Positions 863 to 55,040 of a DNA stretch of 64,000 nt are shown here, piece after piece. The notes under the pieces were generated by a model. The model saw nothing but the letters and a program-made list of their open reading frames with translations, had not been told where the DNA came from and did not search any database. Both the position numbers and the translations under genes were made by a program. Source of the DNA: Rhizophagus irregularis (taxonomy: Eukaryota); the NCBI RefSeq assembly GCF_026210795.1, contig NC_089429.1, positions 3,906,001 through 3,970,000 on the forward strand. The letters run 5' to 3'. How positions within the stretch are numbered: position 1 is the first letter of the stretch; every line of letters begins with the position of its first letter.

Positions 863-1277
863 CTTTACAGAAACTTTAAGTTTTCAAGTGATATCATTTC
901 AATATCATTTCAATATCATTTCAATATCGATTTAATATCGATACGATATCGAAATAAAGTATTATCACTTCGATATCATTTCGATATTAAATCGATATTA
1001 AAATGATATCAAAATGATAATAGAAATGATATCGAAACAACATCTTTAAGTTTAATTTAAAGATATCATTTCGATATCATTTTAATTATCATTTCGATAT
1101 CATTTCAATATCAATTTAATATTGAAATGATATCGAAGTGATAATACTTTATTTCGATATCGTATCAATATTAAATCGATATTGAAATGATATCGAAATG
1201 ATATTGAAATGATATCGTTAAGATAAACTTAACGATATCGATTCTATATTGATTAAAAATGGTAAGTTTCTGTAAAG
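863..1277. mobile_element. Foldback MITE with TA TSD
   Basis: TA|CTTTACAGAAACTT ... AAGTTTCTGTAAAG|TA; interior is a palindromic array of GATATC repeats. Confidence 0.8.
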
Positions 1278-2699
1278 TATATATTATATGTAATATGATA
1301 TAATAGAAAAATATATAAAATATAATAATAAAATATAAATTATGCCGTAATAAAATATCAATACTAAAATGGTGTTTATTATATAATTAATTTAAGTAAT
1401 TTAATTATATTAATTTCTATTAATCAATTAGCAATAAAAAAATAATGCTTATCGAATACAAGCTGCGTTGAAACTTGTTTAATAAGCACTTAAATTAAAT
1501 ATTCTTAAAGCATTTAATAAATGGTTGGTAAATGCTTAGGTTAACTTCGTGATGATGGTACTGAAAACTTTGTTAGATCTTCAGAATATACGCGATATAA
1601 GTATAAAGAGGCAGGCAAACAGTATCCATGTGATTCGCTGGAAATTAACTATTTCAAATCTGCAGGTATTAATTTCTCAAATTTTAACAATAATTGTGAG
1701 TACGTGCAACGAGTTTTCTGAAACATAAGATAGTATATCATATATCCGTATATTCATATATTCATGTATTCAATAGTTAGCTATATAATACAATAAATCG
1801 ATATACTTTTTACCCACTATACTGCCACGATGCATGTAGTAGAACAGTGTACGACATAAATTAGCACGTTTTCAATCCTCGTTAAAGTATATATGATGTA
1901 ATAGGTGATACACCGCAAATCATCTATCTGCTTGTGCGACAAATTAATTTTCACACATAAGCCCAGAATATTTTGAATTTTTTCCCTATCTATCTGAATA
2001 GCATTTATTTATGAGTTTATTTCCTCTGATGCTAGAGGCTATTCCTACTAGATTTCGACCAGAGTATATTTATATAATGTTACTAGGCCTTTATTACTGA
2101 GCGGTCGGGCAAGTGAAATAAAGAAAAAAGTCTGTATATGCATTGTCCCCAACACCATTCTAAATGTCGAGATCTTCAATGCACATTCCGCATGCCCTTA
2201 TTCTTGAACATAAAATTTTGGCGTAAAAGTGCCTTGCATATTCTTCTACTTGATCCCAACATAAATTCAGGCTCAGAGAAGATGGTAAATGGAGATTTAA
2301 AAGGGCAAGTATATAGAATTCAAGTTATTTGTCGCTTATTATTCTTTCAGCGAAATTCTAACACTATATTTTCGTCATTATGTCTTCTTTCGCATTATAT
2401 GAAAATATTTATAATTTTTTACTTGATTCACCCTCAGACCATATTACTGCATTTTCTGTTATTTTTCAACTAATAGAAAATGATACGTGGTATCCAAAAA
2501 ATAAGTTAAGAGAAATAATTCATCAGGCAATTATAGTAGTGAAAAAGAATTACAATCAGACTTCGAAAAAATATCTAAAACTCGTTGATATTCCCTTAAA
2601 GATTAGTAATTATTACTATTATTTATCAGATTATAATCCCAAATGATGATTGCGCAGAATAATATTTTTATAACCAAATTAAGTGAGTACCCATAGCCA

Positions 2700-4280
2700 T
2701 GTGGGCACAGGTTTTATCAGATGCATTAATTCCTTAGACACACAAGGGTGGATCTTAGTTATGGTTTATGAAGAAAAAATATAGCATTCATGTACATTGT
2801 TAATTGTATGCAGGCCACATATAGTTGATAATTTACTTGAAATATGTTGATAAGTGTGCGCACATGATTCTAATATCAAAAGATTAATTACATTAGTACT
2901 AATATAAGGCTTCTGCGCTAGTTTGATGATGCATATGAAGGTGTAAGTAGTCTTCAGAATATCAAAGAATCAAAACAGGAAGAACCGCTCACTAAGAATG
3001 AAATCAAGACGAACTTGCGTGTCTTGAAAACCAATCTTAAAAATAGCAAGGCTCCATACACCTACCACTTCCGTAAATATTTAAAGAAGAAAAGTGCTTC
3101 AAATTTATCATGGCGCGTTCTACTTGCTAGTCAAGTGATTTGTGCGGATTCAGAAATGGTGAGAACTTTGGAAGTAGAGGCATATAACTTTTTTATGGTA
3201 AGTAATTTAGCAAATAGTGTTTTGTATTACCATAGTCTACTTTCTGCAAAGAGTATTTATTATATTAATATTGTGATCTCTATAGGATCCGGCAGAGCGT
3301 ATGAAAGTAACTGCTCCAAATCTTGTCAAAGATAATTGTGATTCCTTTGTTTTGAATTTCATAGACAGTATTACAGATATCCCAAATAATAGACTTTACA
3401 TGATAAAAGTTGGAAAGAATCTAACGAAAAACTAGGAAAAGTTACGTTAGATATACTCAATATCTTGTAAGTATTTCAGTAACGAGCCTTAATATAATAT
3501 AATAATCATATTTGCCATTTCTTTTAACGAAAAATAGTGTTTAACATTATTTTTATAGGAGAGATATTTGGAAAAATTCTGCCTTTGGCCCAAAGTTGGT
3601 TAAGTCACAAAGTGAAGGGACATATATGACTAATGTGATAGTTCCAATGATTCGAGCATCATTAAAAGATCTTCCAATTGGGAAATCTGGTTATATTTCT
3701 ACAGCTGAGCGTCAAAGTATAGCTAGTAAAGATCGAAGAGGAATTGGAAAATGACCAGATGTTATATTTATCGCTAGTTGTAATGAAAGAATATATGAAT
3801 TAATTTATTGTGAGAGTTCTCGTATCATTTGTGATGAACAAAAAAAGGAAAATGATAAGGTAAAAACTTGGAGAGAGATGAATGTATTGGGCCCACAAAG
3901 GATGCAAACTGGACAAAGATGAATTTGGTATTATTGGAATCCAAGTTGCTGGAACTAAGATGTATCTAAATATCCTCATTCGAGGTATGGATGAGATACA
4001 TCGTTTCTATAATTTACGTACAGTTAAAATTCCGATACAACCAACAGATGTTTAAATTCATCGAAATTTTATTAACAATAATATGGGTATGTGGAATGCA
4101 GTTCTTATTCAAATTTTTATTTTACTTTCTTAAAATTAACACATACTTATAATTATAGAATATCTTGCATATCAATATTTCTCTTCTATATTACGCGCTT
4201 CCAACTAGTTCAAGTAGTAATACAGAAAATAGCTCCACTGTATCTTCTTCACCAAGATCATCATCACCACCAAAAATGAA
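2700..4280 (+). pseudogene. Multi-exon pseudogene of a PD-(D/E)XK nuclease-like hypothetical family
   Basis: GT-AG introns at ~3198-3285, ~3467-3558 and ~4087-4158. The exon after 3558 reads ...SEGTYMTNVIVPMIRASL...AERQSIASKDRR..GK*PDVIF...YELIYCESSR, with stops and frameshifts. The 5' boundary is approximate. Confidence 0.5.
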
Positions 4281-4515
4281 AAAAAGAAAGTCTATGAAAT
4301 TCGAAAAAAAAATAATCTAATTGTTGTGTATATTACCGTTCAATAAAGTGCCCTGGTGGCCAATTATTTTTTATATATTCATCTGTTTTTTTTGTATGGG
4401 ATACACACCAGATAATAAAAATTTTTCTTGGCAAATTTGCGGGACTGCGTGGTCTCGGAAAACATGTGATTTTTTACTTTTGAATATTAACATACTAATA
4501 CTATATTACGCTAGC

Positions 4516-4716
4516 ATGCAATCCAAAATAGATGAGACTGATTCATTGAAAATATACATTGCCAGGCTTGAGCTCGAGAATGATAAAATTAAGGTTGAGA
4601 ACAATAAAATTAAGGCCAAGAATCTTGAGCTTAAGGCCAGAGTTGTGAAATTGGAAGACATGCAATTGCAAAACGTATTAATAAAAAATATATTATCTGT
4701 ATCACAAAAGACATGA
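4516..4716 (+). CDS. Small coiled-coil hypothetical protein
   Basis: MQSKIDETDSLKIYIARLELENDKIKVENNKIKAKNLELKARVVKLED shows a heptad pattern. Confidence 0.45.
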   Translation: MQSKIDETDSLKIYIARLELENDKIKVENNKIKAKNLELKARVVKLEDMQLQNVLIKNILSVSQKT

Positions 4717-4980
4717 TCATGTATTAATTTTGGTGAAATTTCTTCAGCGCTGGGGTACCCCTGCCAAAATGATTTTTTCTTGCTGACCAATGGTCGGGTG
4801 TCATGTGCATTTTTGATCAGAGTTTTCTAGCAGATCTTTCGTGATATTGACGCGTATAACTATATCCTGGTAGACTTCGTCTATATGGGTGACAGAATGC
4901 TCAGAATTCTTAGATTCTCAGAATTTTTCTTATAAAATTTCTGAATCTATAAAATTTTCAAAATTTTTTATTAGTTACCT

Positions 4981-5686
4981 ATGGTAACAATGACCGGTAT
5001 ACTAACACCAACTTTTCACGTATATTACTCAAAGCAACTTAACCAGCTCCCCCATTCCATTAAAATAGATACATGGCGATGTCTTACTTCACGAAAACAT
5101 CTATTATCGATAGAACAGGCAAGTAGTATCCACCCCGAAGTGGAAGATTTGTTAAATAAGGCGGTTGGAAATTATATTAACTGAAGCAAAAAGAGCGTCA
5201 GAAGATGAAGCCTATTACCCGCGACTGTGAAAATTTGTTAAGAAAAGAAAATGAGGAGTTGTATATATCAAAGCGGGTATTGGAAAAAAAGATTGAAGAG
5301 CTTCTCGACTTGCAAGAGCAATATAAGTCTTATGAAGTAGCCATGACCAGGTCTTTAAAAGAGAGTGATGGAAAAGTCACCCAATTATCAGATTCGGTAG
5401 CTTTCTTCAAAAGTATAATTCCTGATACGAGAAAAGCCATTGCATCAGCTGAAAAGTCCATTGACATATTAGAGAATAAATGCTAGCATCTGGAGGATAT
5501 TATTTCTGCTAAGGATAGGAAAATTATCACTCTTGTTGATCAGATCCTTTCCAAAACGAAGCATAGTGATGTGACTATAGAGCTGGAAATATATTCTAGC
5601 ACTCATGAAAGGAAATTATGGGCGAAGAGGCGTAGTGAATCTGAACATGATCTAGAAACTAGGAAAAATATACATTTCGTCCTTAG
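4981..5686 (+). pseudogene. Coiled-coil hypothetical protein (frameshift ~5180, stop ~5485)
   Basis: ORFs 4981-5184 and 5205-5486 join and read past TAG (HLEDIISAKDRKIITLVDQIL...). Confidence 0.5.
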
Positions 5687-5700
5687 TACCTAAGAAAATT

Positions 5701-6437
5701 CTACTCATTAGCGAGAGGTACATCCCAGCCAACGCGTATCCTGTATGGATGTTCGCGAGGTACAGTTAGATCGAAAACAACGAATTTTTGTTCACATAAA
5801 TGCTTATCAATAATTTTAATCACATTATGCCAGTCATTAGCATATTGATGCACATAAATAGGCAGATATGTGTGAGATTTTTTTGTATTATCTTTGGGCA
5901 GTCAAAGTAACTCTGGGATACATATATCAAACTGATGTTATAGTGGCGCCCTTCGACGAAATAAGGAATAATTTTCTCTTGCACTTTTTTCAGATCAGCA
6001 TATACATCTTCGAATATAGGCACTGTACCTCTATCTGGAGAGAATGAATCCACCTTAGGGATTTTATCAGGCTTTATAGCCCGGAATGTAATATTTTCAC
6101 GGTATGGCTTTAGACTATTTGCAATTATCTGATACGCCGATTTGAGGTACATATATTTCGGCTCCTTAAGATTGTGACCAATGAGTAGCAAATCATCATA
6201 CTTGATGTAACGTGTTCCTCCTTTCTTCCCATTAAACATTTGATAAAGCTTATTTTCGAGCATGAAATTGAGAACTTCATTAGTTTTTCCTGAATTAGTA
6301 CGGCCACAAATTAGAAGGGTGAAAGGCCATTGGGGGACACTTGGATGTCCATTATATTTTTGGGCATCTTTAATATCGTTGATGTGATATACGAGCCTAT
6401 CAACTGGCTCGAGCTTTTTACTTTCATATTAGACTAT
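5701..6437 (-). pseudogene. A32-like (FtsK/HerA superfamily) DNA packaging ATPase
   Basis: In frame upstream of the tracked ORF 5820-6263 is [15 protein letters not shown] (Walker A, ~6282-6305). Then PIFED (Walker B) and [16 protein letters not shown] (Arg-finger/sensor motif). After a frameshift at ~5855 the C-terminus reads FVVFDL...RIRVGWD. The start codon appears mutated (ATA GTC TAA). Confidence 0.85.
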
Positions 6438-6497
6438 CTATTACTAATGATATTCTAAAATAATCTTGCAATTTTCAGCGACGGCCGTCGTCCAAAT

Positions 6498-7106
6498 TTA
6501 TTTTTGAAGGAGAAGGAATCCTTTCTCGATTAGAGTATGTCTGATATAGGACAAGAGGTCAGCTGTGTACGGGACTTCAATGAAATATATTTCTTGATTT
6601 TTGCATATATCCCGCTTCTTCTGATCACGCTGACTTTGTGTTTTTAAACTTTCGCCTCCTTCAGTCTCCCGATGATAAAAACTATTGTGATGGTAGTGTT
6701 GAGGGTCCTGGAATTCGAATGCAAGACCCAACTCTTTGTTATATCCATTGAGATGCATTCTATTCAAGAATGATGGTCTGCAGGATGGAAATTTCTTGCC
6801 TAATAGATCCTCAAAAATATATTGGCATTAACGTTCACCGGTAGTGTGGTGGTATAGAGGACACCATTCAAATTTTTTCATATATTTTAGTGGATACTTC
6901 CACTAATACGCACCATTTTCACAAAACCAAAGATATATGTTATGACCATTTATTCGCCCAGTCCTTTCTAGATGTTGACCACCATGTCTTCTGGCATAAT
7001 CAATAGCTTGATCTAACTCGTTATTGATAGGAAAAGCATATGCAATATGTACAGATAATATGTTTTGAGATGGACGACCAACCCTTTCTGGATCAGCTAT
7101 TAACAT
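6498..7106 (-). pseudogene. Zn-ribbon + restriction-endonuclease-like (Vsr/DUF559-type PD-(D/E)XK) domain, of the kind seen in large DNA viruses
   Basis: [11 protein letters not shown]...WCP...[48 protein letters not shown]...[21 protein letters not shown], one frame with two stops. Confidence 0.7.
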
Positions 7107-8160
7107 GAGCTCCTCTGTTACAAATCCTCGCTTTGGAGCAAATTCATCATCATCACTTCCGAGATAATATAAGACCAGCTCATTCTTTATAACAACAACT
7201 TTTCAGATTCTATGGAAACTTGGGTTGAATGTAGGGTCAGTTGCACGCTTCTCATTTTCCATACCCCTTCCCATTCTGCATTGGCAAGTAGGTAGTGGAC
7301 GGTATTTCCTTTCTTTAACCTTATTTCATCTTGTCCAACTGGGCGCTTATATTTTGTGGATGGTCTAGATTCGACTCGTTCTAAAGCAATAGCTTTCACA
7401 GGTTTAAGTCCCCATTTTTCTGATCCTGGTTCTCAAATAAGGCGCGTGGGATAGTTATTTAGATAATTAATAACCACTGGTAGAAATCTAACCCATGCTC
7501 TTATTAGTTTAGGATCAGAAGATATTAATTCAATAGCATACTGGATCTTGTATAGAATCTTCGAAAGTGTTTGATTGAAACGCTTCACAAATGCAAGACC
7601 TCGATGGAAATATGGACCGACCACTCGAATTGTGACATTATGCTCTTGCATTAGTTGAGAAGTCTCGCCCATCCATTCTCGCCTATTATCTGTTTAAAGT
7701 AATTTAGGATAGGTAAGAGAATTATTAGGGTCATCATAAATTTTTCTGAACGCTCTAGCAACTTCTGAACTATTCTTAGATGTGAGCGGAACTGAAGCCT
7801 TGTATTTGGAGGCGCAGTCTATAATGTTAAGTACTGCTTTATATTTTTTACCTCTATAGTGATCATGAGTAAAAAATAGTATATCGCACTGGTATACATA
7901 ATTAGGGCATATTATTCGCCATAGCTGGCTCTAGGAATGTATTTTGGAGAGGTTTTATTGATTTGGTATGACTCTTGATTTTCTAAAAAATTTTTGCATT
8001 CACTTAGGTGGAATCGATGCCCTTCTTTTTTACATGCGTCTCTTAAGGATTTGGGATTAGAATAATATCTAGTCAGGCAATAATATACATCACGCAATAT
8101 AAGATTTTTTTCGATTCTTTTAGCCTCATCAGGATCTATCACAATTTGCGGTTGGCTCAT
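7107..8160 (-). pseudogene. Polinton/Maverick-type DDE (rve) integrase
   Basis: YQ.NK.SPKYIPR, PNYVYQCDILF (D1), VLNIIDCASKYKASVPLTSKNSSEVARAF, TDN (D2), FVKRFNQTL (catalytic E now K), WVRFLPVVINYLN, YKRPVG, RATDP, LYYL...[10 protein letters not shown]. Several stops and frameshifts. Confidence 0.85.
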
Positions 8161-8209
8161 TCTCAAGGTAGGATTATTATGATGGTACTATAAATTAGGA
8201 TGAAATACC

Positions 8210-10423
8210 ATGTTTGATCCAGCATATTCACAGCTTTTAGATACTAACCAGGAGCTTCGTAGTGAACTTCGAGATGAAATTTCTATTAATAAGAGTAATG
8301 AGAAAAAACTTCACTCTCTCGTGAAAGAGCTTGAGCAATGTTATCGAACTATCTCATTACAGGATAATACTATTATAACCTATGAGAAAGAGATAGAGAA
8401 ACTTAAATCAGAAATATCTAATTTGCGAAAACAGCTTAGGGTTTTACAACAGGATAAAAAATTCAAAGATGATGTTAGGTCTATTCAAGATGGCCGAATC
8501 ATAGAGTTTGAAAATAAGGTAGAACGTTTCAAGGCAAGAATCCGGATTTTCATAGACAAAAAAATTCCAATAGATAATTTAGATATGGCAACGACTAATC
8601 TTATTGGAAATGTTAATAGAAAGTTAGAACGAATTGAAAATCACATTAGGAGAGTCAGTACGCCTATGCAGAATCCTGCCAATGTTATAGATGGTATCAA
8701 AGGCTCGTTAAATACTATTCAGGTTACTTTGCAAAATATCACAACTGAAAGGGATCAATATCAGAACCTATTAAATGATTCAATTTGGCGGGTAGATGAT
8801 CTTAGAAATCAGTTAAATGATAGCGGAAATCAGAATTTACGATTACAACGTTTATTAGATGAATTCTGTGTTCAGGTTGAAAGAACTATGAGAGAAAGGG
8901 ATGTAACTATAAGGGGAAGAGATAATGCTTAAGAAGAGCGGGATATGGCTATTCTGGCTTATAATAATGAGAAAAAAGAATCCTGCCGTTGGTATTTCTC
9001 ATATCGGGATAAAGATAGGCGTGTTCAAGAATTATTGCGAGAAAAGTTTGCTAAACAGATATTATGTCAGCAGAATGTTAACTATCTTTAGCAAAATACC
9101 CGACAGTTGCAAACTAATGCTCAAAACTAAGTAAATAGGATGTTAGTCATTATAGCAAGAAAACAAACCCGCATTGGCAAATTGATACGTGAAAAGTTTG
9201 TTTTCCAGCTAGTGATTAGGCAAAGAGACCAGAATATTTTAAATTTGTAGGGACAAATTTTGGCGCTTCAGAATAACTGAACCTAATTGTAAACATGGCC
9301 GATGCTAGACGTTTACCAGTATTAAATTTGATTGCACCTATTCTTGCTAAAAATAAGCCGTATACAGGCCAAGAACCTTCTGATAATTATTTGGATAGGC
9401 TTATTCAATCAATATCATTTGCGCAAAGACATATGACTGTTCTTGAAAATGCAAATGCCGGAGATTTTGATGATGCTGTCAAGTATGATATTTATAAAGC
9501 TCCGTCAGATGGGAGGAAAATATTTACCAGTTCCTGCCTAAGACTCATATAATGGAAATGCTAATATTAATACTCCAGCTACTTTACGTGTTTGAATGAG
9601 ATCAAAATATCAACATGAAACAGTAGGTAGTCGGCAGTCAGCACTGCAAAGGTTAATTCAAGAAAGATTTCTACCCACAGATTCACCAGATACTTATGAA
9701 AAAAGAATCTGACCTTTATTATTAGGTGTAGCGGATGGTGATGTCCAAACTGTAAGATTTCTTAAGAATCACTTGTTAGGTAATCTTTATACATGGATGC
9801 GAGCTGTTGCTCCTGCCGGTATTGATGCATTCTTTACACAACTTAAAGATATGTGGTTGGAGCGTGCTCCCAATCTAAATGGAGGTCAAAATTATCAGAG
9901 TAATTCTTCAACTGAGATTGATAAGTTAAATTCCAAAATAGCCTCCCTTGAAGCACAGTTAGTTCAACTGATTCAGGCACAACCCCAAAATAATGATGCC
10001 TTAGAAAAGATGTATATACGCGCAGTGCGGTTAGGAATGCCAGTTGATGCACCAAAAGATCTTACATCCTTAGATAATTATATTAATGATGAATTAATAA
10101 GGAGATTGGGCGTTGCTAATACCAATTACACCAAGCTTTCCAAAAAATACTCTCAAATGGTTAATGTGGTCAAAAAGTTAGCCAAGCATAAATGCTCTAA
10201 TTGTGGTAAAGCTGGCCACAATTCTCGTAAATGTCTCAGAAAAAAGAAGAGTAAGTCTAAAAAAGGTAAAGTAAATCTTGCCACTTTAGATTTAGGTTCA
10301 GATTCGAACACTAACTCTGATAAGTCGTCTGATGACTCTTCTAATTCTAGTTTGAGTTCTTCATCTGAATTCGAGTCTGAAGCTGATATTAATGTTAACA
10401 TTACTAAGGCAAAAAAAAAGTGA
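8210..10423 (+). pseudogene. Long coiled-coil + Gag-like (capsid-like) + CCHC zinc knuckle protein
   Basis: The 8210 frame reads through TAA/TAG stops to ~9280. Then PYTGQEPSDNYLDRL (Gag-like N-terminal motif), LQRLIQERF..DSPDTYEKRI (MHR-like) and CSNCGKAGHNSRKC (CX2CX4HX4C). Confidence 0.7.
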
Positions 10424-11314
10424 AGAAAGAATCAAGTAATCCTTCCCCTCCACTAAAAAAGAAATCAAAGAGCCACCTTACGGCCAAGTCTCAAGAGGTA
10501 ACAGATATAGAGACAGCTCCTTTGGTCTCAGCTCCTTTCTCTAAAAAGAAAAAGCGAAGTTCAAAATCCCTATCACAGGATAATTAATTCCGCTTGGAAA
10601 ATATTATTGAGAAAATTATTGAGAAGGTGCTTAATGAAAAGTTTGGCGCCATTATAGCCTTTTTTCAATCACAGAATTCTGCTTTTAGAATACTGGTTAA
10701 TAGTAGAGATGATCTCACTTCGAATACTCCTGAAACTCCAGACTCAGATAAAAAGACGAAATTCTAAATGAACCTATAGAAATCGATTTTGTTCAGAAAA
10801 AGGATCCTGCCACTGATGTTGTTACTACTAAGTGTAAAATCAAGCATCTGATCATTCCGGTTGCTGTGGTTGATTCTGGTGCTAATTTTGCAATTATGAC
10901 AGATGATATCTCTAAACGATCAAAGCTAGAAATTGATACAAAAGAAAAACATGATCTCAGAGGTATTGCTACTACTCCCACAAAATCTCTTGGAATTGTC
11001 AGAAATGTCCAGTAAATTTCACTTCCAGATGTACTATATATGCTGATTTTGCTGTAGTTAAATACCCTAAGCCGATACTAATCTTACCCAACACACTTCT
11101 TGATAAATATAATTATGATTTACTTGCATCAAAGCAGGAATTGAGACTAAAGTGTAATGGTAAGGAATTTTTTATCCCAAGTAATATGCATAAGGTCAAA
11201 AATAAGCTTGAGGTGAATTGTGCGATCACTACTTCCAAATGTGATGAATCCTCGACCCCGAACTGTATTTCGCAGGATTTAAGTGAGGATTATGATGTAT
11301 TAAAAAAAAAGTGA
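10420..11314 (+). pseudogene. Retropepsin-type aspartic protease with basic linker
   Basis: AVVDSGANFAIMT (DSG at 10872), LRGIAT...SLG, ADFAVV...PILILPNTLLDKYNYDL. Frameshifted, so absent from the ORF track. Confidence 0.75.
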
Positions 11315-11447
11315 GTTATAAGGAACTTGAAAAAATGCTATATAGCACTCTTAAGTATAATGCAGAAATCAATAAGTATTGTGAAAGATTACAGGCACGC
11401 TATAATGAACTTCTTGCCGAAGACGCTTAAGGCAGAGAATAGGCGAG

Positions 11448-11966
11448 TTATTTTTCTAATATATTCTTCATATTTGCTATATTTTTTATGTTTCTTTCAA
11501 CTATCTTCTCATACAACGTGAGAATTGGTTGAGACTGGATAGGAGATGGTATTAGCGGTGGTATCCCATCCTTGGACTTCGATTTCTTCCCTTCGGCCTT
11601 TTTTGCCTTTTCACCTTCTTCCAAAAGTGAATCAATAGATTTGCTAGACTCTATCTTAGCATCATGTATTTGTTTTTCTAGCTCTGTAAATGGAGAAACA
11701 TCTTGGTCTTGGATCTCTGACTTAGTCCGCCCGCCTACAACATTTATATTAGAAAGCGAAACAGTCTCTCCAGGAGCAGCTGTTGACATATGAATTGGTT
11801 GATTCCACACAACCCCATTTTTTTCTTCACCTTTCCAGATCTGATAAATACGTTTTTGTGATGTACAATATTTATCTGTTAAATCCTTTAAAACTTTATC
11901 TCTAGGCTTTTTTTCAGCACATTGCATAATATGATCATAATCGGCTGGTGAAAAAGGGGGCATCAC
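11448..11966 (-). CDS. Hypothetical protein, possible N-terminal HTH
   Basis: 172-aa ORF; LKDLTDKYCTSQKRIYQIWKG resembles a helix-turn-helix recognition helix. Confidence 0.5.
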   Translation of the reverse strand: MMPPFSPADYDHIMQCAEKKPRDKVLKDLTDKYCTSQKRIYQIWKGEEKNGVVWNQPIHMSTAAPGETVSLSNINVVGGRTKSEIQDQDVSPFTELEKQIHDAKIESSKSIDSLLEEGEKAKKAEGKKSKSKDGIPPLIPSPIQSQPILTLYEKIVERNIKNIANMKNILEK

Positions 11967-13019
11967 ATCTCATGCGTCGCCTAAGCATAGTAGCAATATT
12001 TTTTTTTATATCTAATATAATACTCCGAAATAATTTATTAAATAGGATATATATTATTCTGAATATATAGGATATACAGGATATACAGGATATATAGGAA
12101 GATATTATTCTAGACGTATAGGATATATGGGATAAATAGGATATTTAGAAAGATTGTATTATTCTGATTGTATAGGATAAGTTTATTATCTCGGAAATAA
12201 ATTCATACATTTTTTTTCTAATATATAACCATGCTGATATTATGTCCAATGTGCATACATTAAATGATATAAAAGATAGAGAGGGTGGTTCTTATAAAAA
12301 ACCTGGTCATCGGCTAGGTAGTGCATATGAGCAAGAGCTCAAAAAAAAATTAAGATCTGTTACCGAATTTAACTCTGAGATTAATGATCTCAGTGAAAAG
12401 CTGGTAGATAAGTACAATGAGCGAGAAAAGGAGTCTCAGCGAACCTATGCTGATATTAGAAATAAGATTAGCCAGTTAAATGCGTCCAGTGCTAAAGTTA
12501 AATCCCAGCTTATTTCTGAACGGAAGTCTCATTCTGAGAGTTATCGTGAGCTTGAAGCCAAATATACTGCCGAAATCAAATCGCTCAAATCTTCTATTAA
12601 ATCATTGAAGAGAGAGGCAACTTTGGCCCAGAAAGTTTCGTCCGCCGACAAGATCAAGATTCTTTCTCTTGAAACTAAAGTACGTGAATTGGAAGGTAAG
12701 TTGGATGACTTGGAACTAGAACAGGTGCTCCACGATTTGAATGCAGTGGGAGGGGTGATAGAGGAGCCAGCCCAATCTGATCCTAAAAAGATCGATTCTC
12801 TCAGGCTTGAATTGGATCGAGTGAAGGAGGACCTTAATTCAAAAAATTATGAAATAGAATGTATGGAAAAAGGGAAAGAGGTGTCGGATAACATATACAA
12901 ACGGGAGCTAGATATTCGGTCTTCAGAACGATTAAAATTGATGGAGGAAAATAGTTCCCTCAGGGACCAGTTAGCGTTAAAGAAAGAGCCAAGAGGCGCT
13001 TCGCATAATGAAGTAGATA

Positions 13020-14610
13020 CAGTCACCCCTCTCTACAGCGAACCTCGATATAGCGAATAACATGATATAACGGATCATACAATGTGGTACCGATTTTAAA
13101 TATGAAAAAAACCTTGATATAACGAAGTTTACTATTTATTTACCATATAACATAGTACGAAGTAAAGTGTGTGAATTTCTTATATAAAAATGCCTCTCGA
13201 TATAACGGATTTTTTTTATAACGAATTTTTTTCAGTTATAACGAAAAATTTCTTTATAATTAAATGTAATTATTAATAAATATTGATGCATTATGACATT
13301 AAATATCACCCCTGTGTTTTATATTTAAATTATGGATCAGGATTGTATCAGGATCGTATCAGGATTAATAATTCTGGCTATTTTATTTAATATTTAGGCA
13401 GAATTACATTAATTTACATTAATTCGGTTGTATTAGGATTCGATGTGAATTGTTATTAATTTATATTTATCACAGGGGTAAGGACACTCCTAGTTAAATT
13501 AATATATCATTAATAATTTATTTATTATATAGTCAGTTATTGTTAAACAGCATTCCTACAAAAAAAAGGAATTATAATAAACCTTTTTATATAGAACACT
13601 TCAGGAAGCATTCCCTATAATAAAAAAATAAAAAAAGAACATTAGTAAATATTCTTAAACGAAATTAAAAGAAAAAATTGAGTTGTCCCACTTACTTCTT
13701 GTCTCAAGCGTTCATTTCGAAGTCCCTACAATAAAAAAAAATAAAAAAGAATATTAGTAAATGTTCTTAAACGAAATTAAAAGAAAAAATTGAGTTGTCC
13801 CACTTACTTCTTGTCTTAAGCGTCCATTTCAAAGTCCCTACAATAAAAAAAATAAAAAAGAACATTAGTAAATGTTCTTAAACGAAATTAAAAGAAAAAA
13901 TTGAGTTGTCCCACTTACTTCTTGTCCCAAGCGTCCATTTCAAAGTCCCTACAATAAAAAAAATAAAAAAGAACATTAGTAAATGTTCTTAAACGAAATT
14001 AATAAAAAAAATCGAGTTCCCCACTTACTTCTTGTCTCAAGCGTCCATTTCGAAGTCCCTACAATAAAAAAAATAAAAAAGAACATTAGTAAATGTTCTT
14101 AAACGAAATTAATAAAAAAAATCGAGTTCTCCACTTACTTCTTGTCTCAAGCGTCCATTTCGAAGTCCAGGAAGTTCCCTATAATAAAAAAATAAAAAAA
14201 GAACATTAGTAAATGTTCTTAAATAAAAAAAATTGAGTTCCCCACTTACTTCTCGTCTCAGGCGTCCATTTCGAAGTCCAGGAAGTTTCCTACAATAAAA
14301 AAAATAAAAAAAGAACATTAGTAAATATTTTTAAACGAAATTAATATAAAAAACCCCCCAGTTCCCACTTACTTCTCATTCTAGGCATCTATTTTGAAGT
14401 TTAGAAAGCACCCCTATAAAAAAAAGATTAAAAAAAATGTTAAATTATCAGTAATCAGATCAACAAGTCACATGATCTGTATAACCGATATTCCTATACC
14501 GAAGAATTCATTATACAATACCGAATAATTCGTTATAGTGTTAACGAAGTTGCTTATAACGAAGCCCTGATCAGCTGGAACCTAGGGTTCATTATATCGA
14601 GAGGGGACTG
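13020..14610. mobile_element. Non-autonomous Tc1/pogo-like element, TA TSD
   Basis: TA|CAGTCACCCCTCTC ... GAGAGGGGACTG|TA with subterminal ATAACGA repeats. Confidence 0.8.
13600..14420 (-). repeat. Tandem repeat, 7 x ~110 bp, each unit = intron + 30/40-nt exon
   Basis: On the minus strand each unit is GTAAGT...ACTAAT...T-rich...TAG followed by GGACTTCGAAATGGACGCTTGAGACAAGAA. Confidence 0.85.
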
Positions 14611-14616
14611 TACTCT

Positions 14617-15609
14617 CAATGTCGGACAACTTCCCGACAACCTTTTTCCTGACATACCCTTTGCCTGACAATGATTACCTGACAAGACATATTCCCAAAT
14701 GTATATTTTACCGACATGACACATTCCCTAATAGACATTATACCTACATGTTAGTTTTCCCGACATGACATTATCCCGACAACACATATCCCAACAGAAA
14801 TTTCCTGACATGTTGAGATGATTTACAAAAAGTAAATGTATCATGTTTATAAATATAAATATAAATGACTGTTATTAACAGTTCTTTATTTTCCTTTTTT
14901 TTCAATGTGATTTTTCACGACCAGCATGGTTTATATATATATATATATATATATTTAATAATTATTTCATTTTTTTTAATAATTTTTTAAAACCGTTTTA
15001 ATTTACTTTTTTATCTAAATTTATTTTTAATTTATTATCATTTTTTTTAAAAAATAACTATTTTATAACAATTTTTTTTTAAAAAAAGGTTTCTTAAACC
15101 GTTGTACTTTATAAGACATGGATATATTTAATAAGACAATTGTCTTATGGCAAATTCTTTTTTAAAAAGTTGTTAAAAAAATAACTGGAAATAAATAAAT
15201 GCAACTAAAATAAATTTTTGTAGGGACACAACGGGTTGCTGCAAGTTATTTTATTAAAAATTTGCACTATTAAAATGAAATATATAGTGTACATGAAATT
15301 GCGAATTTTTACTAAAATAAATATATGAATAAACAAATAAAAAAATTTTCTCCATATGTTTTATTTTAAATAATTGGGAAATTCGGGAAATCGCTTTTTT
15401 TAATGTATATGTCATGTCGAGAAAATGTCTGTCGGGAAATGTGTTGTCAGGATAATGTCATGTCGGGAGAACTAACATGTCGGTATAATGTCCATTAGGG
15501 AATGTGTCATGTTGGTAAAATATACATTCGGGAATATGTCTTGTCGGGTGATCGTTATCAGGCAAAGGGTATGTCGGAAAAAAGGTTGTCGGGAAATCGT
15601 GGTGTAACC
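14617..15609. mobile_element. Non-autonomous DNA transposon with ~190-bp TIRs (MULE- or hAT-like), 8-bp TSD
   Basis: Left arm of CCGACA repeats (14630-14812) is inverted to the right arm (15410-15600). TSD is GATACTCT/AATACTCT, with the left copy split by the pogo-like insertion. Confidence 0.75.
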
Positions 15610-15934
15610 AATACTCTACCCCTGCCTATGAATGATTCATCACAACCTTCCACTCTTAATCCTTCGTCCCAAATAATTTCTGTGGGTGGCACAGAAGCGG
15701 TATCTTTACAGGCGACTGCTCTTATCGTCACGAGCTTCTTGATGTCGCCTATATTAATATATTCTATACTTACCTTACTACTTATTGCAATTATATGGAT
15801 CGTGGTTGGGAAAAAAATATGGAATATATGGAAAAAAAGTAACCAATTTTTCACCTACGAAAATTATATAAATAGGGATCATGCAAAGCGCCTTTCGCCC
15901 AGACCAGATCATTATTATTTTCAATCCTAATCGA

Positions 15935-16273
15935 CTACCGTATAAGTACTGGCGCAAATGGAACATCTTTGAATCTTTTCTTGGTGTGAGCTAATAGCTT
16001 TTCTGGTAAATCTTTGGGCGGATTTATTAAGACTTTTTTAGCTTGGACCACTGTACATGCTAATAACCAGCCAATATGGATCAGGTTACCTCCTTTACCA
16101 TTATGACCATGCTGTAGTAAATATCGATAGTCGTCCATTACGATATCTGCCATTCCTTCCTGATCTGCTATTATTTTACGAAACACCCACCTATCATCTT
16201 CTGTGATTGGGAGACGAATTTTGTTAGGTTCGAAGCCTATGTACTGGGAAACTTGGTCGCGTAGTTCAGCCAT
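15935..16273 (-). CDS. Hypothetical protein of the virus-like block
   Basis: Intact 112-aa ATG ORF whose stop lies 4 bp from the stop of the opposing gene. Confidence 0.55.
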   Translation of the reverse strand: MAELRDQVSQYIGFEPNKIRLPITEDDRWVFRKIIADQEGMADIVMDDYRYLLQHGHNGKGGNLIHIGWLLACTVVQAKKVLINPPKDLPEKLLAHTKKRFKDVPFAPVLIR

Positions 16274-16843
16274 TATACCAATAAAGCTTATCTAAAATAT
16301 GTGTTTTTGGCTGGGGCCCCGGCTGAAATTTGCCAAATTATTATATGCGAAAAATACTAATGATCATCTCTGGGCATATCCGAGGCTGAGCTATATGATC
16401 GGAGATCAGAGAGATGTTCGCTTTGCAAACTCAGGTCGAATATAGAAATTGAAGTTAACCGGTAAATAAATATCACGAAAAATAATTCTAAGACAATGTT
16501 GTACAAAATAAATCTGGCCAATAAAATTTGTTGCGGTCACGTTACAGTAAATTTTTTGGTGGTGTTCTTGGGGTAGTTAATCTTGGTGTAATAACACTTG
16601 TTGCAATAATAAAAACAAATTCTGTCACACAAACAACTAGTACAACTAGTGACAACTTGCGATAAAAAAAAATCATCCCACGATGTCGTATGATCTTTAT
16701 TAGTTTTCTTTTTTGTATTTAAGCCATTAAGATAGCCATTACTTCTTATAAATAAAATAAAATAAAATTTAAGCCATTAAGATTTTTAGGGGTTTCGAAA
16801 ATTACTTTTTTGCTTACAGTTAATATTAATAAAACGGAAAATA

Positions 16844-18446
16844 ATGTTTAAAAAAATCGTCAAATTTCTATTCTTCTCAACTTATTTTTTCCCTACTGCA
16901 TTAGCAAGAATACCGATTTCTGATATGTTTAACTTTGAAACAAAGGAATATGTTCCCTATATAATCGTCACTTTAATTCTTTTAATTACGCTTATTCCAA
17001 AACAAAAACTTCTACTTAAATTTATCAGGTCGATGATCTCTTTAATCTTGATATTCTTCTTAGCTCTTATTTTCCCCCTTCTATTCTGTTACAAAACACA
17101 AGGCTTCAGCAAGTTTATGATAGTTTTAATAGCTTTCTATTGTTCAATAATAACATGTATTATAATAATATGGTGTATTTTTAAATGTATAAAAAATGAA
17201 CTAATGAAAACAAAATTTATTGTCTCTGGAACCTTGATAATCCTCATAGCATTCATTTTCCCACCTTTATTCATATATGTGGCAGATGGTCTTAGCAAGT
17301 TAACAATAATTTCAACGGCCTTATATTGGAGAACTATTGCATCTATTTTAATAGCAATTATAACATTTCTAATTTCAAAAGACGAGTTAAATAAAAAAAT
17401 AGAAATAGCCATTATAATCCTCGCAATACCTTTAACATTAATTATGATAATTAGTCATCAACCTTTAGTATTTTATGCAACAAATAATCTTGATAGTGTA
17501 ACAATAACCTATTTGGTTTTACTTGATAGTCTTATTTTTATTGTCAATTTTCTTGAATTAGCAAAAAGACACTTCACTTCTTATTGCTCACCAAAATTAT
17601 TTACTTGGGGCGGGATAATGCTTGTTTTAATATCGTTGTCAATGGTTATTTATAGTGTAGTAATTGCGATCAAGTTTGGTTGGAAATACTCTTATATTAC
17701 AGCTATAGTTAGAGATGGGCATGTTATATAACAATATAAAATAACACAATGTTATATAACATATATAACATATATAACAGTTATATAACATAAATAACAA
17801 TGTGTAACAAATATAATACTGGCCAAAAAAATTGTATAGTGACTATAATTCTAGCCAAAATTATATTAAAAAATTTCTGATGTGATCGACGAAATAATTT
17901 CCTTTTTTGATTCTTGTGTAACAACTGTCAAAGATTTTCTCAATTTTTATTGGGAGACAAAATTTCCTTTTTTGGATTCTTGTGTAACGTCACGTGATAT
18001 GTGCCGAAATTAGAACTTAATTCCGGCTAACTTAAATTAATTTTGGCCAATTTTGTTATATAATGTTATATAATGTTATATATGTTATATATGTTATATA
18101 ACTAATATCAAAAAATGTTATATATGTTATATATGTTATAAATGTTATATAACGTGTTATATGCCCATCTCTAGCTATAGTTATTAATTTAGTGGTGTTC
18201 TATTGCCTTGAACTTTTATATAAAATGAAAATAGTTGGATATATAATAAGTACCATTTTATTTGGAGTAGATTACTACATTTTATTTTATACATTCCAAA
18301 ATGAAGTCAATTCAATTTCGCTCTTACTTTTCTGGGCAGATTTATGGAGTATATTATTTATAATTTATGTTAGCATTGAAAATGAAAGGGAAAATGTTGA
18401 GGGGGAAGAACCAGATTTTGATATTGAGAATTTCATATCACAATAA
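16844..18446 (+). pseudogene. Multi-pass membrane protein (~376 aa when restored), disrupted by a hAT MITE
   Basis: Signal-peptide-like N-terminus and about 10 hydrophobic segments. Removing 17710-18181 joins YITAIV|INLVVFYCL in frame. Confidence 0.75.
17710..18173. mobile_element. hAT MITE (464 bp)
   Basis: TIR TAGAGATGGGCAT; perfect 8-bp TSD GCTATAGT. Confidence 0.92.
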
Positions 18447-25575: not shown

Positions 25576-27124
25576 CAGTCAACTCTCTTTATAGTCACAC
25601 ATTTGGGACAGTCCATATTTGGTGATTATAAAGAGATGTGACTATATAAAAAATTTCTTATATTAGTATATCATAATTCCGGCCAAAAATTGACATAATT
25701 TTGGCCAAAATTATACTTAAAACTTTATTGTATCGTAACTCCTCCAATATTAATCGTAAAGAGATGATCTTACCGCCATTCGATTCGTCTTGATGAGACG
25801 GTTCTAATGGTATAAAATACATCGAAATCCAATCACTAGATTAATTTCCGAAATTAAAAAAATATTAATGGTTTTTGTGTAATAACTCTGCCAATATTGA
25901 TCCTAGAGAGACGATCTTACTACCATTCGATTCGTCTTGATGCGACGAATCTAATGGTATAAAATACATCGAAATCCAATCACTAGATTAATTTCCGAAA
26001 TTAAAAAAATATTAATGGTTTTTGTGTAATAACTCTGCCAATATTGATCCTAGAGAGACGATCTTACTACCATTCGATTCGTCTTGATGCGACGAATCTA
26101 ATGGTATAAAATACATCGAAATCCAATCACTAGATTAATTTCCGAAATTAAAAAAATATTAATGGTTTTTGTGTAATAACTCTGCCAATATTGATCCTAG
26201 AGAGACGATCTTACTACCATTCGATTCGTCTTGATGCGACGAATCTAATGGTATAAAATACATCGAAATCCAATCACTAGATTAATTTCCGAAATTAAAA
26301 AAATATTAATGGTTTTTGTGTAATAACTCTGCCAATATTGATCCTAGAGAGACGATCTTACTACCATTCGATTCGTCTTGATGCGACGAATCTAATGGTA
26401 TAAAATACATCGAAATCCAATCACTAGATTAATTTCCGAAATTAAAAAAATATTAATGGTTTTTGTGTAATAACTCTGCCAATATTGATCCTAGAGAGAC
26501 GATCTTACTACCATTCGATTCGTCTTGATTCGACGAATCTAATGGTATAAAATACATCGAAATCCAATCACTAGATTAATTTCCGAAATTAAAAAATATT
26601 AAATAGTTTTTAAGTAGTAACTCCGTCAATATTGATCATAGAGAGATGAGCTTACCACCATTCGATTCGTCTTGATGAGGCGATTCCAACGAGCTATTAA
26701 TCGTCTTTTTACAATCACTAGGTACCGAGATATTTAGCAAAATGTTAAATGGCACAGTAAACGTAAATCAAGGAATATAATAATGCCGATGCTTAACATT
26801 TTGTTGAATAACTCATCAGCCAGTGATCGTAAAAGGATAAAACTACCACCATTCGATTCGTCTCAGTGAGACGATTCTAACAAGCTATGGTGCATCTTTG
26901 TACGATTATTAGATGCCAAGTTATTTAATATATTCTTTATATAACTGTGATTATAAACAATTCTTTTTAATATAAGATTTTTGAGGATAGGTGTGATAGT
27001 GACTATAGATAGATTGTGACTATATAGGATAGATTTTAATAATAAAGTGTTTTGAACATTCAACTGGTGTGACTATATAGTAGAATGTGACTATAATGGG
27101 AGTGACTATAGAGGGAGTTGACTG
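25576..27124. mobile_element. Non-autonomous Tc1/pogo-like element with internal 147-bp tandem array
   Basis: TA|CAGTCAACTCTC ... GGGAGTTGACTG|TA; second copy at 30666-39487. Confidence 0.92.
25746..26720. repeat. 147-bp tandem repeat, 6 full units + 1 diverged
   Basis: Unit starts at 25746, 25893, 26040, 26187, 26334, 26481 and 26628. Confidence 0.95.
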
Positions 27125-31482: not shown

Positions 31483-33503
31483 ATGGGTAAAGATAACAAA
31501 AAGAAAAATAACCAGTCTAACAAAGATACTACATCTAAACGTCCTGCCTCTAGCTCTCCAACTGGCAACGTTTCTGGTCAAGGTTCCTCTATGTCTGGCC
31601 CTTCGAACACTCCACCTTCGACCACCTCTACTAATAAACGTACCAGAGTCAGTGCTGACGACTCTGTCATGGATGTTGATAAACCTCTCACGCCTCCTGG
31701 CCCTGTTGAGACAACTTCCGCTGAGATACCTTCTCAACCCGATACCTCCTCTCTCGATGCTTCGCAACACGCCCCTGCTAACAACAACGATAAAGGCAAA
31801 AGCCCTGAAATTACTCCCGCAGTCTCCTTCCCTGAACGTGCTGCCTCTCCGGACGCGTCCCAAGCTGCAGTACAATCTCAACCTACACTTTTCTACGCCT
31901 CGGCCGCTCCTAATGATGTCAATGGCTTTTGGAATCACTTCGCTTCGAACCGTGATGCGTGCGACGCAGTTGATTGACAACTTTCCTTGTTCTCCTCTTA
32001 TGGTAGTCGTGCCACGTGTAGTGGATCCAACGATTTGAAGAGGATCATCGTACATTTCCGAAAAAAGGATGATCTAGACAAAGCCACAGCCTCCCCTATA
32101 GATTCTTTGTTTGGTTTGCATTTCCATGCATATGACCCCCAGGCTATTAAGGCAGATGAACACGCGCGTACCCTGGTGGTTACCGATATCCCCCTTTTTC
32201 TAACTGACGCTCTTTTGCGTAGTACCTTTTCTCGTTACGGCAATATTACTCGTTGCCATACCCGTTTATCTAAACTTTATCGTACTGCATACATTACCTT
32301 TGAATCTACTGGTGCTTTACAGAACCTCGACTCTACCTGGGGCGTCCTTTGTGGAGGACATTGTTTGCGTATCTGCCCCGCTACTTTCTCACCTGAATAA
32401 CGCGCTGAAAGACGCGCTTATGTTGCTTTACTTGCCGGTCTCCCGCGTGGCACTATAGTGGTCGATCTTGCTGAAATTGCCGATGAAATTTCTGCTAAAT
32501 CTATCAATGTTCCCTTCTCTATGAATTCTTACAATCCCAAACCTTACGCCTATTGCCATTTTGCCTCGAAACGGCTATGGAAAATGCTAAATCTATTTCA
32601 TGTGCCCTCAAGAAAGTTGGCCTTACCTGGCATTCTCCGGATGAAGTCACTTCTCTTTGTCATCGATGTGGTCGCCCTAATTGTAACCCTGATCGATGTG
32701 GTTCTTCATCTAGACCTAATCGCCCTTCTCGCCCTTGGCAATCTAATGATAAATTACGTGCTTTATATAATAAGCATCTACCTCCTTCTCATCCTGCTAA
32801 ACGACATAACCGTTTTGCCCGCCCTGATAACAATAATGATGGACAAAGCCGTACCAATGCTTCTCGCCATCGTTCTAAATCCAGACCTAACAACCGACAA
32901 CAATCTCGTTCTCGTTCTCAATATCGACCATGGAATCGCGACAATCTTAATAACAACAATAATAATCAACGTCGTGGTATTCCTGATGCAAATGAACTTG
33001 ATCACTATGCTGATGGCATGGATGTTACATACCCTGCTCCTCCTACTGTGCTTACTGATTGGAAATCTATTGGTGCTGCTCTTAAAAAAGTAGTTGAAGA
33101 ATTAGCCCTTCTTACCACACAATTTGCTACCATGAACAGCCGCATCACTAATTTGGAATCTGCTATGGCTGCTCGTGCTCCTATTCCTGGCCCTTTTGTC
33201 ACTAAACCTCCTTCCTACATCCCTTCCTCTATGCAAGGATGGGATGATACAGTGAATCGAAATGATAATAATATCCTCGTTGATGTTAATTCTCCTCCTT
33301 TGCAATCAACAAGTGGTTTTTCCCCAATTCCTCATTTTGCTCCCATTCCACCTTCTAACGTCACCCCTTCCTCTCCTATTGATATGGAACAGCGACTCTC
33401 CTCTCTTTCTGACACTGTTGCCTCTTTGGCTGGCTCGATTAAAGAAGGAATCCAACAAAACAACCTCATCCTAGCTCGGCAACAAGGCCAAGCTAATCAA
33501 TAA
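31483..33503 (+). pseudogene. LINE ORF1 (RRM domains, Cys knuckle, coiled coil); two stops and one frameshift
   Basis: RTLVVTDIPL...FSRYGNI...AYITF (RRM), CHRCGRPNC. Confidence 0.8.
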
Positions 33504-33552
33504 TTGTTCTCTTTTTCCCTCTTCTTTATTACCGATTTATCAGGGTGTAATA

Positions 33553-52155: not shown

Positions 52156-53379
52156 TTATATTATTATATATGGTTCAAATATTTCCCTATCAAAATATTC
52201 CTTTAATAATTCTCCATTTACTGGTCTTCTTAAAATTCTTCCATTTAATTCTTTAATTTTGTACGATCCATTTATTATTACTTCATGTATATAATATGGT
52301 CCCTTCCATTTTTCTTCCAATTTTCCTGTATGTGTTTTGTATTTCGCCGTGTCAAAGTATAATACTTTATCTCCTATTTGAAAGTTTTGTTTTCGTTTTC
52401 CAATTTTGTCATGATATTTCTTTTGTTGTTCTTGTGCTTTTTCAATATTCTTCTTCGCTTCATTTCTTTTTATTGGTAATTCTTCTATTATATGTTCTAT
52501 TCTTTTAATCATTGTAATTCCTTTAACTTCTTCATCATTTGGTAATATTACTCTTCTTCCATAAGTTAAATAAAATGGTGTCATTTTACTTGATTTTTGT
52601 ATTTTACTCCTATATGCAAATAATATTGGTGCTATTCTTTGATCCCAATTTTTATCTTCATATTCTCTATTTCTATATATCGTTAATTTTTCTTTTACTA
52701 ATTTTGCCAATGATTCTATTAATGTTTTATTAAATCGTTCTACTAATCCATTTGTTTTAGGGTGATAAGGAGTTGAGAATTTATGTTGAACATTAAATTT
52801 TTCTGTAAGATCTTTAGTTAATTGATTATTAAATTCTGATCCATTATCTGTAAGTATTTTCTTTGGACATCCATGTCGACAAATTATTTCTTCATAAATG
52901 AATTTTGATATTTCTTTTGCATTTGCTTTTTTTATTGCTTTTGCTTCTAGCCATTTTGTAAAGAAATCTATTGCTACTATTATATATTTATTTCCTTCTT
53001 CTGTTCTTGGTAATGGTCCTATTACATCTATTCCAATCATATAAAAAGGTTCTTTTACTTCTATTGGATGTAATTCATGTAACCCTTGTGGATTATTTCT
53101 TCTTTGACAATTATCACAACTTTTTACATATTTTTCTACATCTCGTTTCATATTCTTCCACCAATATTTTTCTTTTACTTTTTCATATGTAGCTTGAATC
53201 CCAAAATGTGCTGATAATTCATGATCATGCATCATATACATTATTCCTTCTAATTCAAATCTTCTTATTACTCTAAACTTATTTTCATCTTTAATTTTAT
53301 ATAAAACTCCATTTTCTTGTACGTATTTTCCTTCTTTTTCTATATTCTTTAAAATTTTATCATATTCTTTTTCATCCAT
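52156..53379 (-). CDS. Integrase (HHCC, DDE, GPY) in a stand-alone ORF
   Basis: H..H...CDNC, GIDVIGP, TDNG, VERFN, WKGPY. Confidence 0.93.
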   Translation of the reverse strand: MDEKEYDKILKNIEKEGKYVQENGVLYKIKDENKFRVIRRFELEGIMYMMHDHELSAHFGIQATYEKVKEKYWWKNMKRDVEKYVKSCDNCQRRNNPQGLHELHPIEVKEPFYMIGIDVIGPLPRTEEGNKYIIVAIDFFTKWLEAKAIKKANAKEISKFIYEEIICRHGCPKKILTDNGSEFNNQLTKDLTEKFNVQHKFSTPYHPKTNGLVERFNKTLIESLAKLVKEKLTIYRNREYEDKNWDQRIAPILFAYRSKIQKSSKMTPFYLTYGRRVILPNDEEVKGITMIKRIEHIIEELPIKRNEAKKNIEKAQEQQKKYHDKIGKRKQNFQIGDKVLYFDTAKYKTHTGKLEEKWKGPYYIHEVIINGSYKIKELNGRILRRPVNGELLKEYFDREIFEPYIII

Positions 53380-55008: not shown

Positions 55009-55040
55009 CTTTAATGTCTCTCCACTATTATGGCCAAAAC

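Follow-up and report, generated by a model that had tools for sequence, protein, structure and literature searches.

The locus considered here, on the minus strand of a 64,000-nucleotide stretch of the Rhizophagus irregularis genome (hereafter the window), raises the question of whether a Polinton-type integrase has been joined in a single reading frame to a second nuclease and, if so, what such a nuclease does for the element that carries it. The original prediction was that of one polypeptide of approximately 550 aa composed of a DDE integrase and a nuclease domain, encoded by a frame that runs on without a stop from the integrase motif ...LYYL into MLIADPER...HGG...WFCENG. Inspection of the minus strand confirmed this reading, since the frame is open across the junction (7202-6906) and all of the quoted motifs are present in the window gene. 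The parts of this gene are as follows.

6498..8160, minus strand: decayed integrase-Zn finger-nuclease gene, the intact relatives of which are of 548-556 aa.
7918..8160, minus strand: N-terminal part of the integrase, as far as the first 1-bp deletion (tblastn with residues 1-81 of P0003, 83% identity).
7265..7918, minus strand: rve catalytic core (Pfam rve, E 2.8e-08), with the first two Asp retained and Lys in place of the third acid.
7058..7265, minus strand: integrase C-terminal domain and tail (RATDP...LYYL...EEL...PSQNIL), with a recurrent TGA at 7205.
7026..7057, minus strand: linker with a conserved [VI]-[HN]-[FYIV] motif, a candidate protease site.
6846..7025, minus strand: Zn finger (C-H-C-C, DUF4379/DUF723-like), lacking two ligands in the window copy.
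6513..6845, minus strand: predicted Vsr/EDxHD-type nuclease domain, with its catalytic Asp changed to Asn in the window copy.

When aligned with the intact protein P0003, the window gene shows 83, 87 and 70% identity over residues 1-81, 82-299 and 300-547, respectively. It is spread over three frames because of two 1-bp deletions, near 7920 and 7266, and is interrupted by five in-frame stops (7696 TAA, 7435 TGA, 7205 TGA, 6905 TAG and 6830 TAA), all of which fit C-to-T changes because CAA, CGA or CAG is common at those codons in related copies. The few stops had thus been correctly ascribed to CGA/CAA-type transitions, the two frameshifts having been overlooked. Key residues are missing as well: Lys stands in place of the third integrase acid (codon at 7585), the nuclease Asp has become Asn (in LNGY), and the Zn finger is short of two ligands. 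The copy is a dead relic, and CpG deamination is the likely cause of its wear. DNA contigs of run X7 were identical to the window over 6144-7101 and 7535-7990, and neither the junction nor these lesions can therefore stem from faulty assembly, X7 possibly being the window's own source. A family of related copies is indicated by 277 of the 371 X7 contigs being less than 99% alike, contig depth giving no copy number. Two polyA runs were without depth over 6120-9811 and a third gave a short partial match, the organism of these runs sharing few words with the window, which makes them uninformative about expression. The Rhizophagus irregularis gene model P0066 carries residues private to the window copy; together with P0004 and P0009, also Rhizophagus gene models that bridge lesions, it was set aside as a prediction artefact.

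Intact relatives from Glomeromycota and soil encode, in one frame and over approximately 550 aa, a Polinton-type rve integrase, a Zn finger and the nuclease. A search for long proteins seeded by the junction query returned 13 hits, seven of which are of 548-556 aa with 97-100% of the query covered, so that the fusion is not due to chance. Among soil-metagenome loci, which were seeded with integrase motifs only and ranked by the full-length query, one uninterrupted ORF containing every domain was found in six of the best 80 of 138; P0008 corresponds to L014 and P0013 lies near L054/L057, and the intact proteins and loci are consequently not all independent. The collection of intact homologues proposed at the outset has therefore placed both domains in one polypeptide. 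Splicing between the domains is unnecessary to explain these ORFs. Both sides of the junction could be scored by motif in 39 of 81 copies, that of the window being counted. The frame is kept in 37 of these 39, of which 32 are open and five contain scattered stops, and is shifted in the other two; the spacing lies between 183 and 207 nt, a length divisible by three in 36 of 38. Entries of approximately 200 aa that begin at MLIADPE (P0274-P0276, P0282, P0283) were interpreted as gene calls made after upstream stops or contig ends.

The segment MLIADPE...PSQNIL had been taken as the start of the second domain. It is instead an ordinary integrase tail, an equivalent of which ends the unfused relatives: these typically stop 5-15 residues past EEL, with an equivalent xxVPxDTxLPP, and the true join is consequently located near 7058-7026, after the tail PPQSIL. 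Both domains are under purifying selection, with dN/dS of about 0.1-0.3. In unsaturated pairs assessed by simple counting, the values for core, Zn finger and nuclease are 0.14, 0.16 and 0.25 for L044 versus L045, and 0.19, 0.18 and 0.27 for L001 versus L002, while deeper pairs, which are near saturation, give 0.09-0.28 for the nuclease. Among the best 150 cluster representatives, 86 contain parts of the integrase alone, 52 parts of the nuclease alone and 12 parts of the two, all 12 being pieces of this fungal fusion family; the nuclease is free-standing in 79 of 79 viral loci, with no integrase-profile match in frame or nearby. On these counts, and in the collections covered, the fusion looks restricted to this fungal family. 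The viral and prokaryote collections searched yielded no relatives of the fused gene. In gene models from Entrophospora and Gigaspora (P0014, P0063, P0067, P0079), pieces of the fusion gene are joined to leucine-rich-repeat sequence, which suggests that an LRR gene may lie beside the element in these hosts.

A Pfam search of the second domain gave no match. A full-length model built from a 7-row alignment was poor (pLDDT 43) and was discarded; a model of the nuclease from a 44-row alignment reached a pLDDT of 91. Its top two matches among 48,161 chains were Vsr (Z 9.8, rmsd 3.3, 106 aligned) and the EDxHD homing endonuclease I-Bth0305I (Z 9.0, rmsd 3.1, 93 aligned), with RAP and DUF559-like domains next in rank; Foldseek alone, run with this model against the PDB, returned nothing at E 0.001, and a PDB sequence search returned nothing for the fusion profile and insignificant matches for the nuclease profile (best E 0.44). 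The nuclease positions E, D, E, H/Q/N, H and D are retained in 13 of 14 full-length rows, in all 14 of which the Zn ligands are invariant. The active-site order of Vsr and I-Bth0305I is E, D, E, H/N, H, D (PMC3239194, partial text), to which the domain was mapped by order and spacing. Its motif is E-x-(H/Q/N)-G-x-Q-H, and the catalytic Lys is absent. The absence of this Lys, and of a (D/E)-x-K motif, sets the domain apart from canonical PD-(D/E)XK restriction endonucleases, PD-(D/E)XK being the type originally assumed; on the basis of the model, the domain is predicted to be a nuclease of the Vsr/EDxHD branch, in which His is used. It shares with I-Bth0305I and Vsr the fold and the order of active-site residues, but differs from them in that a Zn finger replaces the NUMOD repeats, no intron or intein is involved and the fusion partner is the integrase of a fungal nuclear element; the His-to-Asp spacing is also longer than that of I-Bth0305I.

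The closest relatives of the domain are the Zn-ribbon 'restriction endonucleases' of giant viruses (Klosneuvirinae, pithoviruses and marseilleviruses), found among predicted structures at E 1e-15 and 35-39% identity, and DUF4379/DUF723/DUF559 phage proteins, among the feature-based neighbours at 0.94-0.95. Unlike the fungal domain, these nucleases are free-standing and often carry 2-12 Zn fingers. The phage relatives include the protein encoded by an intron in the Twort terminase gene as well as PHROGs homing families, and capture of the fungal domain from a viral homing-type nuclease is likely. At the nuclease itself neither NUMOD DNA-binding repeats nor an intron or intein setting was found, there being a C-H-C-C Zn finger and no intervening element. 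Separate ORFs with tandem DUF4379-type Zn fingers adjoin the fusion gene at L069:1504-1872 and L042:2-433, the former occupying the usual position of the ATPase described below.

The integrase part is of the Polinton kind, as indicated by its Pfam rve match and by a tail motif common to unfused relatives of ~330 aa. Two types were distinguished among its relatives. Type-A fusions possess a full DDE, whereas in type-B integrases (L044, L045, L054, L078, P0006, P0007, P0010, P0011 and P0013) Lys takes the third catalytic position, a conserved Glu precedes it by six residues (FES...K), and purifying selection still operates. Solved integrases have their catalytic Glu where type B has Lys, and the earlier Glu is possibly a migrated catalytic residue. 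Codon 320, in the integrase C-terminal domain (7205 in the window), is TGA in 18 of 36 type-A copies, as compared with 60 of 330 at 15 other CGA sites. This TGA recurs across the tree, is the sole stop in four copies and is strand-asymmetric, and the copies bearing it are scattered beside near-identical CGA sisters; codon 320 is likely a deamination hotspot, the alternative being that its TGA represents a selected truncation.

On either side of the fusion gene the window contains the following genes.

5704..6428, minus strand: A32-like packaging ATPase, decayed (Pfam Pox_A32, E 2.4e-06).
4980..5690, plus strand: small convergent coiled-coil gene, with an 87% DNA match to L065 over 5025-5679.
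8210..10423, plus strand: Gag-like gene comprising a coiled coil at the N terminus, a capsid-like part and a CCHC knuckle; it is placed head-to-head with the integrase and has an A-run at its end.
10424..11314, plus strand: retropepsin-like aspartic protease (DSG), in another frame past the A-run and with a second A-run at its end.
11448..11969, minus strand: conserved small gene without family match, 53% to the syntenic L056 protein.
12176..13060, plus strand: coiled-coil gene in the syntenic position of L063, cut by a nested insertion near 13019.

This layout recurs in related loci: in 40 of the 41 loci of sufficient length, the Gag-like gene and the integrase stand head-to-head, and the A32 ATPase follows the integrase-nuclease gene in 18 of 19, with the Pox_A32 match obtained in both the window and L078. 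A Retrotrans_gag match below the curated cut-off in three orthologues, the CCHC knuckle and neighbouring Atlas Gag clusters (0.91-0.92) weakly support the identity of the Gag-like gene. As to the retropepsin, one orthologue is similar to the protease encoded by the gypsy element of the window (pairwise E 2e-08). Runs of A8-A9 end the Gag-like and protease frames in the window (10410-10423 and 11300-11314) and in L056, L063 and L077, and would suit ribosomal frameshifting. Past the second run, where a retroelement would have pol, the shifted frame contains only a short peptide, and the protease ends about 130 nt before a convergent gene.

The remaining genes expected of a Polinton or a retrotransposon were sought. 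No Pfam match to a polymerase, reverse transcriptase (RT) or capsid was obtained in six frames of 1201-4901, 8201-13101 and 14601-17800, and none to a protein-primed DNA polymerase B in the scanned ORFs of long loci, the contigs being short and the longest locus 15 kb. A jelly-roll capsid and an adenovirus-type cysteine protease were likewise without Pfam match in the window flanks, such capsids often escaping Pfam. Between the flanks of the window copy, where one arm is broken by nested insertions and the element ends are undefined, no long terminal inverted repeats, 6-bp target duplication or long terminal direct repeats were found. RT/RNase H collinear with the protease gave no match, and the integrase is on the other strand. 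The ATPase had no relative in the prokaryote genomes searched, and eight viral contigs with distant ATPases (24-31%) gave no match to the integrase or nuclease profiles. The element thus resembles the Maverick/Polinton elements of Glomerales in its Polinton-type rve integrase, its RATDP...LYYL...REEL tail and its A32 ATPase, but is distinguished by the C-terminal Zn finger and Vsr-type nuclease, by the divergent Gag-like gene and aspartic protease, and, in the readable parts, by having no pPolB, cysteine protease, jelly-roll capsid or terminal inverted repeat. With Ty3/gypsy LTR retrotransposons and PEG10-like Gag-protease genes it shares the Gag-like gene with CCHC knuckle, the DSG retropepsin and the A-run at the frame change; it departs from Ty3/gypsy elements in that RT/RNase H was not found, in its Polinton-type integrase on the opposite strand and in the presence of an A32 ATPase. 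The original attribution to Polintons therefore holds for the integrase, while the element, with its Gag-like and aspartic-protease genes and no polymerase found, is not shown to be a Polinton. Mavericks are reported, in sources available as partial text, to have expanded in Glomerales (PMC11952901), and for Rhizophagus both PolB-like sequences (PMC8502044) and A32 ATPases that group with Polintons (bioRxiv 2026.06.19.733378) are described, so that complete copies may still carry a polymerase.

Other features of the region were recorded. The coiled-coil gene is interrupted by two adjacent non-coding insertions, at 13019-14612 (matching ends around a ~110-nt tandem array) and 14626-15600 (181-nt inverted arms), and seemingly resumes at 15601-15930 with a hydrophobic, membrane-like stretch. 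About 7 kb past the ATPase of L054 (L054:12697-14485), a second aspartic-protease-like ORF is accompanied by another ORF without Pfam match, the motifs of which we take to be tyrosine-recombinase-like. A decayed plus-strand ORF at about 3400-4050 of the window, also without Pfam match, contains a PDVIF...YCESSR motif that presumably reflects a resemblance to Crinkler-type restriction-like nucleases. The stretches at 33475-38942, 44440-50118, 52156-57242 and 60506-61387 are ordinary retroelements by Pfam, namely two LINE-like elements, a gypsy element strongly skewed towards C over G, and a fragment of RNase H. Repeats in the window include a long palindrome built from 11-nt units (890-1216), a 147-nt tandem array (25578-26759) and a second hairpin-like palindrome (62041-62270).

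The linker between the integrase and the Zn finger deserves separate consideration. Its [VI]-[HN]-[FYIV] motif is present in 35 of 37 linkers as opposed to 0 of 112 background windows, the motif having been chosen after the alignment was seen and the rows being related. The unfused integrase of L078 lacks it, and V-[NH] motifs of a similar kind are found after the Gag knuckle. In Ty1, the sites cleaved by the protease carry Val/Ile at both P2 and P2', together with a hydrophilic residue at P1 (PMC6952103, partial text). The linker motif matches these in part, its P1' being mostly aromatic, unlike Ty1, and it is conceivable from this partial match that the protease splits the polyprotein at the linker.

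The element can do without the fusion. In L077 and L078 a stop closes the integrase frame, and the nuclease is encoded by a gene of its own, read from the opposite strand, which in L078 occupies the same slot, inverted, before the ATPase; the start of the stand-alone nuclease is conserved in about a dozen more protein clusters (P0259-P0268, P0284, P0294). The arrangement against which the original prediction had been set, i.e. a stop followed by a separate start between the two domains, thus exists in the lineage of L077, L078 and P0259-P0268 and not in that of the window. The integrase of the L078 lineage is of type B and nests within fused integrases, monophyly of the latter being rejected (AU p 4e-115, in a quick tree of 17 rows); the nuclease tree, also a quick one, leaves 17 of 34 branches open. 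Every one of the 52 loci with 200 nt of sequence beyond the integrase contains the nuclease, on the same strand in 50 and inverted in two. No empty site was therefore seen in these 52 loci, which derive from the best 80 of 138; ranking by the full-length query favours nuclease-bearing copies, and empty sites may consequently have been missed. The modules are mosaic: P0003 and P0006 are 42% identical in the core and 80% in the nuclease, and L045 and L040 are identical up to the Zn finger with a nuclease pS of 0.34. This mosaicism extends to Gag and ATPase, which makes recombination element-wide. At 8126 of the window, and in L040, L044, L045, L048, L050, L052 and L064, DNA similarity to type B breaks sharply inside the integrase start, and across that break Gag, nuclease and ATPase remain 70-90% alike; integrase cassettes appear, from these comparisons, to have been swapped within a common backbone.

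The reading that we prefer, tentatively and at slightly less than an even chance, is that a captured viral homing-type nuclease now serves the element. The nuclease, which intact copies encode in frame with the Polinton-type integrase, would nick or cut element DNA for packaging or integration. This reading is favoured because the nuclease is present in every locus of the 52, is under selection and is placed before the packaging ATPase, as is an HNH nuclease in one Polinton-like virus. In that virus the HNH gene lies just upstream of the packaging ATPase and was proposed to act in genome processing, and homing nucleases (GIY-YIG or HNH) fused to helicases are also described in Polinton-like viruses (PMC12220804, partial text). 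These viruses (Tlr1) hence offer a parallel, in that a homing-type nuclease is joined to one of the core element proteins or precedes the packaging ATPase, although there the partner is a helicase and the nuclease is GIY-YIG or HNH, as opposed to the integrase and Vsr-type domain found here. Considering that a lineage with separate genes exists, it is argued that tethering is not needed; the fusion would then be a device for co-expression rather than a required tether, and cleavage at the linker motif by the element's aspartic protease may set the nuclease free.

Somewhat unlikely, though to be taken seriously, is that the nuclease is still a selfish homing endonuclease, which rides on integrase expression through the fusion, cuts related copies and is copied in at repair. 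I-Bth0305I is the closest solved fold after Vsr, the phage relatives include the Twort intron-encoded protein and homing families, the relatives in viral loci are all free-standing, both orientations of the nuclease occur in one slot, and nuclease-helicase fusions are known from Polinton-like viruses (PMC12220804, partial text); module mosaicism also counts against domestication because homing would give such mosaicism. However, Gag and ATPase are mosaic too, no empty site was seen in the 52 loci (a biased sample), and selection is steady across a saturated synonymous distance. By the reasoning of the homing cycle, a purely selfish nuclease without empty sites is expected to decay. Less likely again, but also to be taken seriously, is a tethered partner of the integrase, which would nick or open donor ends or target DNA and perhaps offset the altered type-B active site. 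Fusion in 50 of 52 loci would agree with such a partner, as would a type-B integrase that has Lys at the third position and an earlier Glu and yet is under selection; against it, the unfused L078 lineage is of type B with its genes apart, type-A fusions have a full DDE, and near relatives integrate without a nuclease domain. Of the candidate roles put forward at the outset, namely excision, concatemer cutting and target choice, the unfused form weakens the last, in so far as the nuclease would select targets through tethering.

Retention of the role of Vsr, whereby the nuclease would nick T:G mismatches arising from deamination of 5-methylcytosine and so shield the element from host-driven decay, is very unlikely. 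The top fold match is indeed Vsr, C-to-T change drives the decay of copies and host TEs are reported to be CpG-methylated (PMC8647823, partial text); yet the nearest relatives are multi-Zn-finger viral nucleases, at 30-40% identity versus 14% for Vsr, and the copies decay heavily regardless. That two normally separate genes merely seem to be joined, through an accident of decay or of gene prediction, has almost no probability left. A separate-gene lineage does exist, and in the window the frequent TGA of codon 320 is followed 32 codons later by a Met, but uninterrupted ORFs in divergent lineages refute such an accident for the fused lineages, the frame is held across variable linkers, and the codon-320 TGA lies inside the integrase domain, in copies scattered among near-identical CGA sisters.

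A further reading, to which we assign a low probability, is that of a new hybrid class of fungal mobile elements. A Gag-protease module from a retrotransposon would have replaced the Polinton capsid and cysteine protease, the Vsr-type nuclease would cut DNA that the A32 ATPase pumps into a Gag shell, and the Polinton integrase, released by the retropepsin, would insert it, with one integrase lineage having a shifted catalytic Glu. Fungal Mavericks/Polintons are described, in the partial text of PMC7805220, as being without a detectable capsid. The literature consulted yielded no description of the fusion or of the Gag-protease/integrase/ATPase layout, of which Repbase and supplements may make mention. 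We know of no account of how Mavericks/Polintons free and process their ends, and a selected and conserved nuclease located between integrase and packaging ATPase is a concrete enzyme candidate for this end processing. A homing-type nuclease has here been caught in two states, free and fused, within one family, and, judging by the layout, some of the 'Mavericks' that abound in mycorrhizal fungi may be hybrids of retrotransposon and virus.
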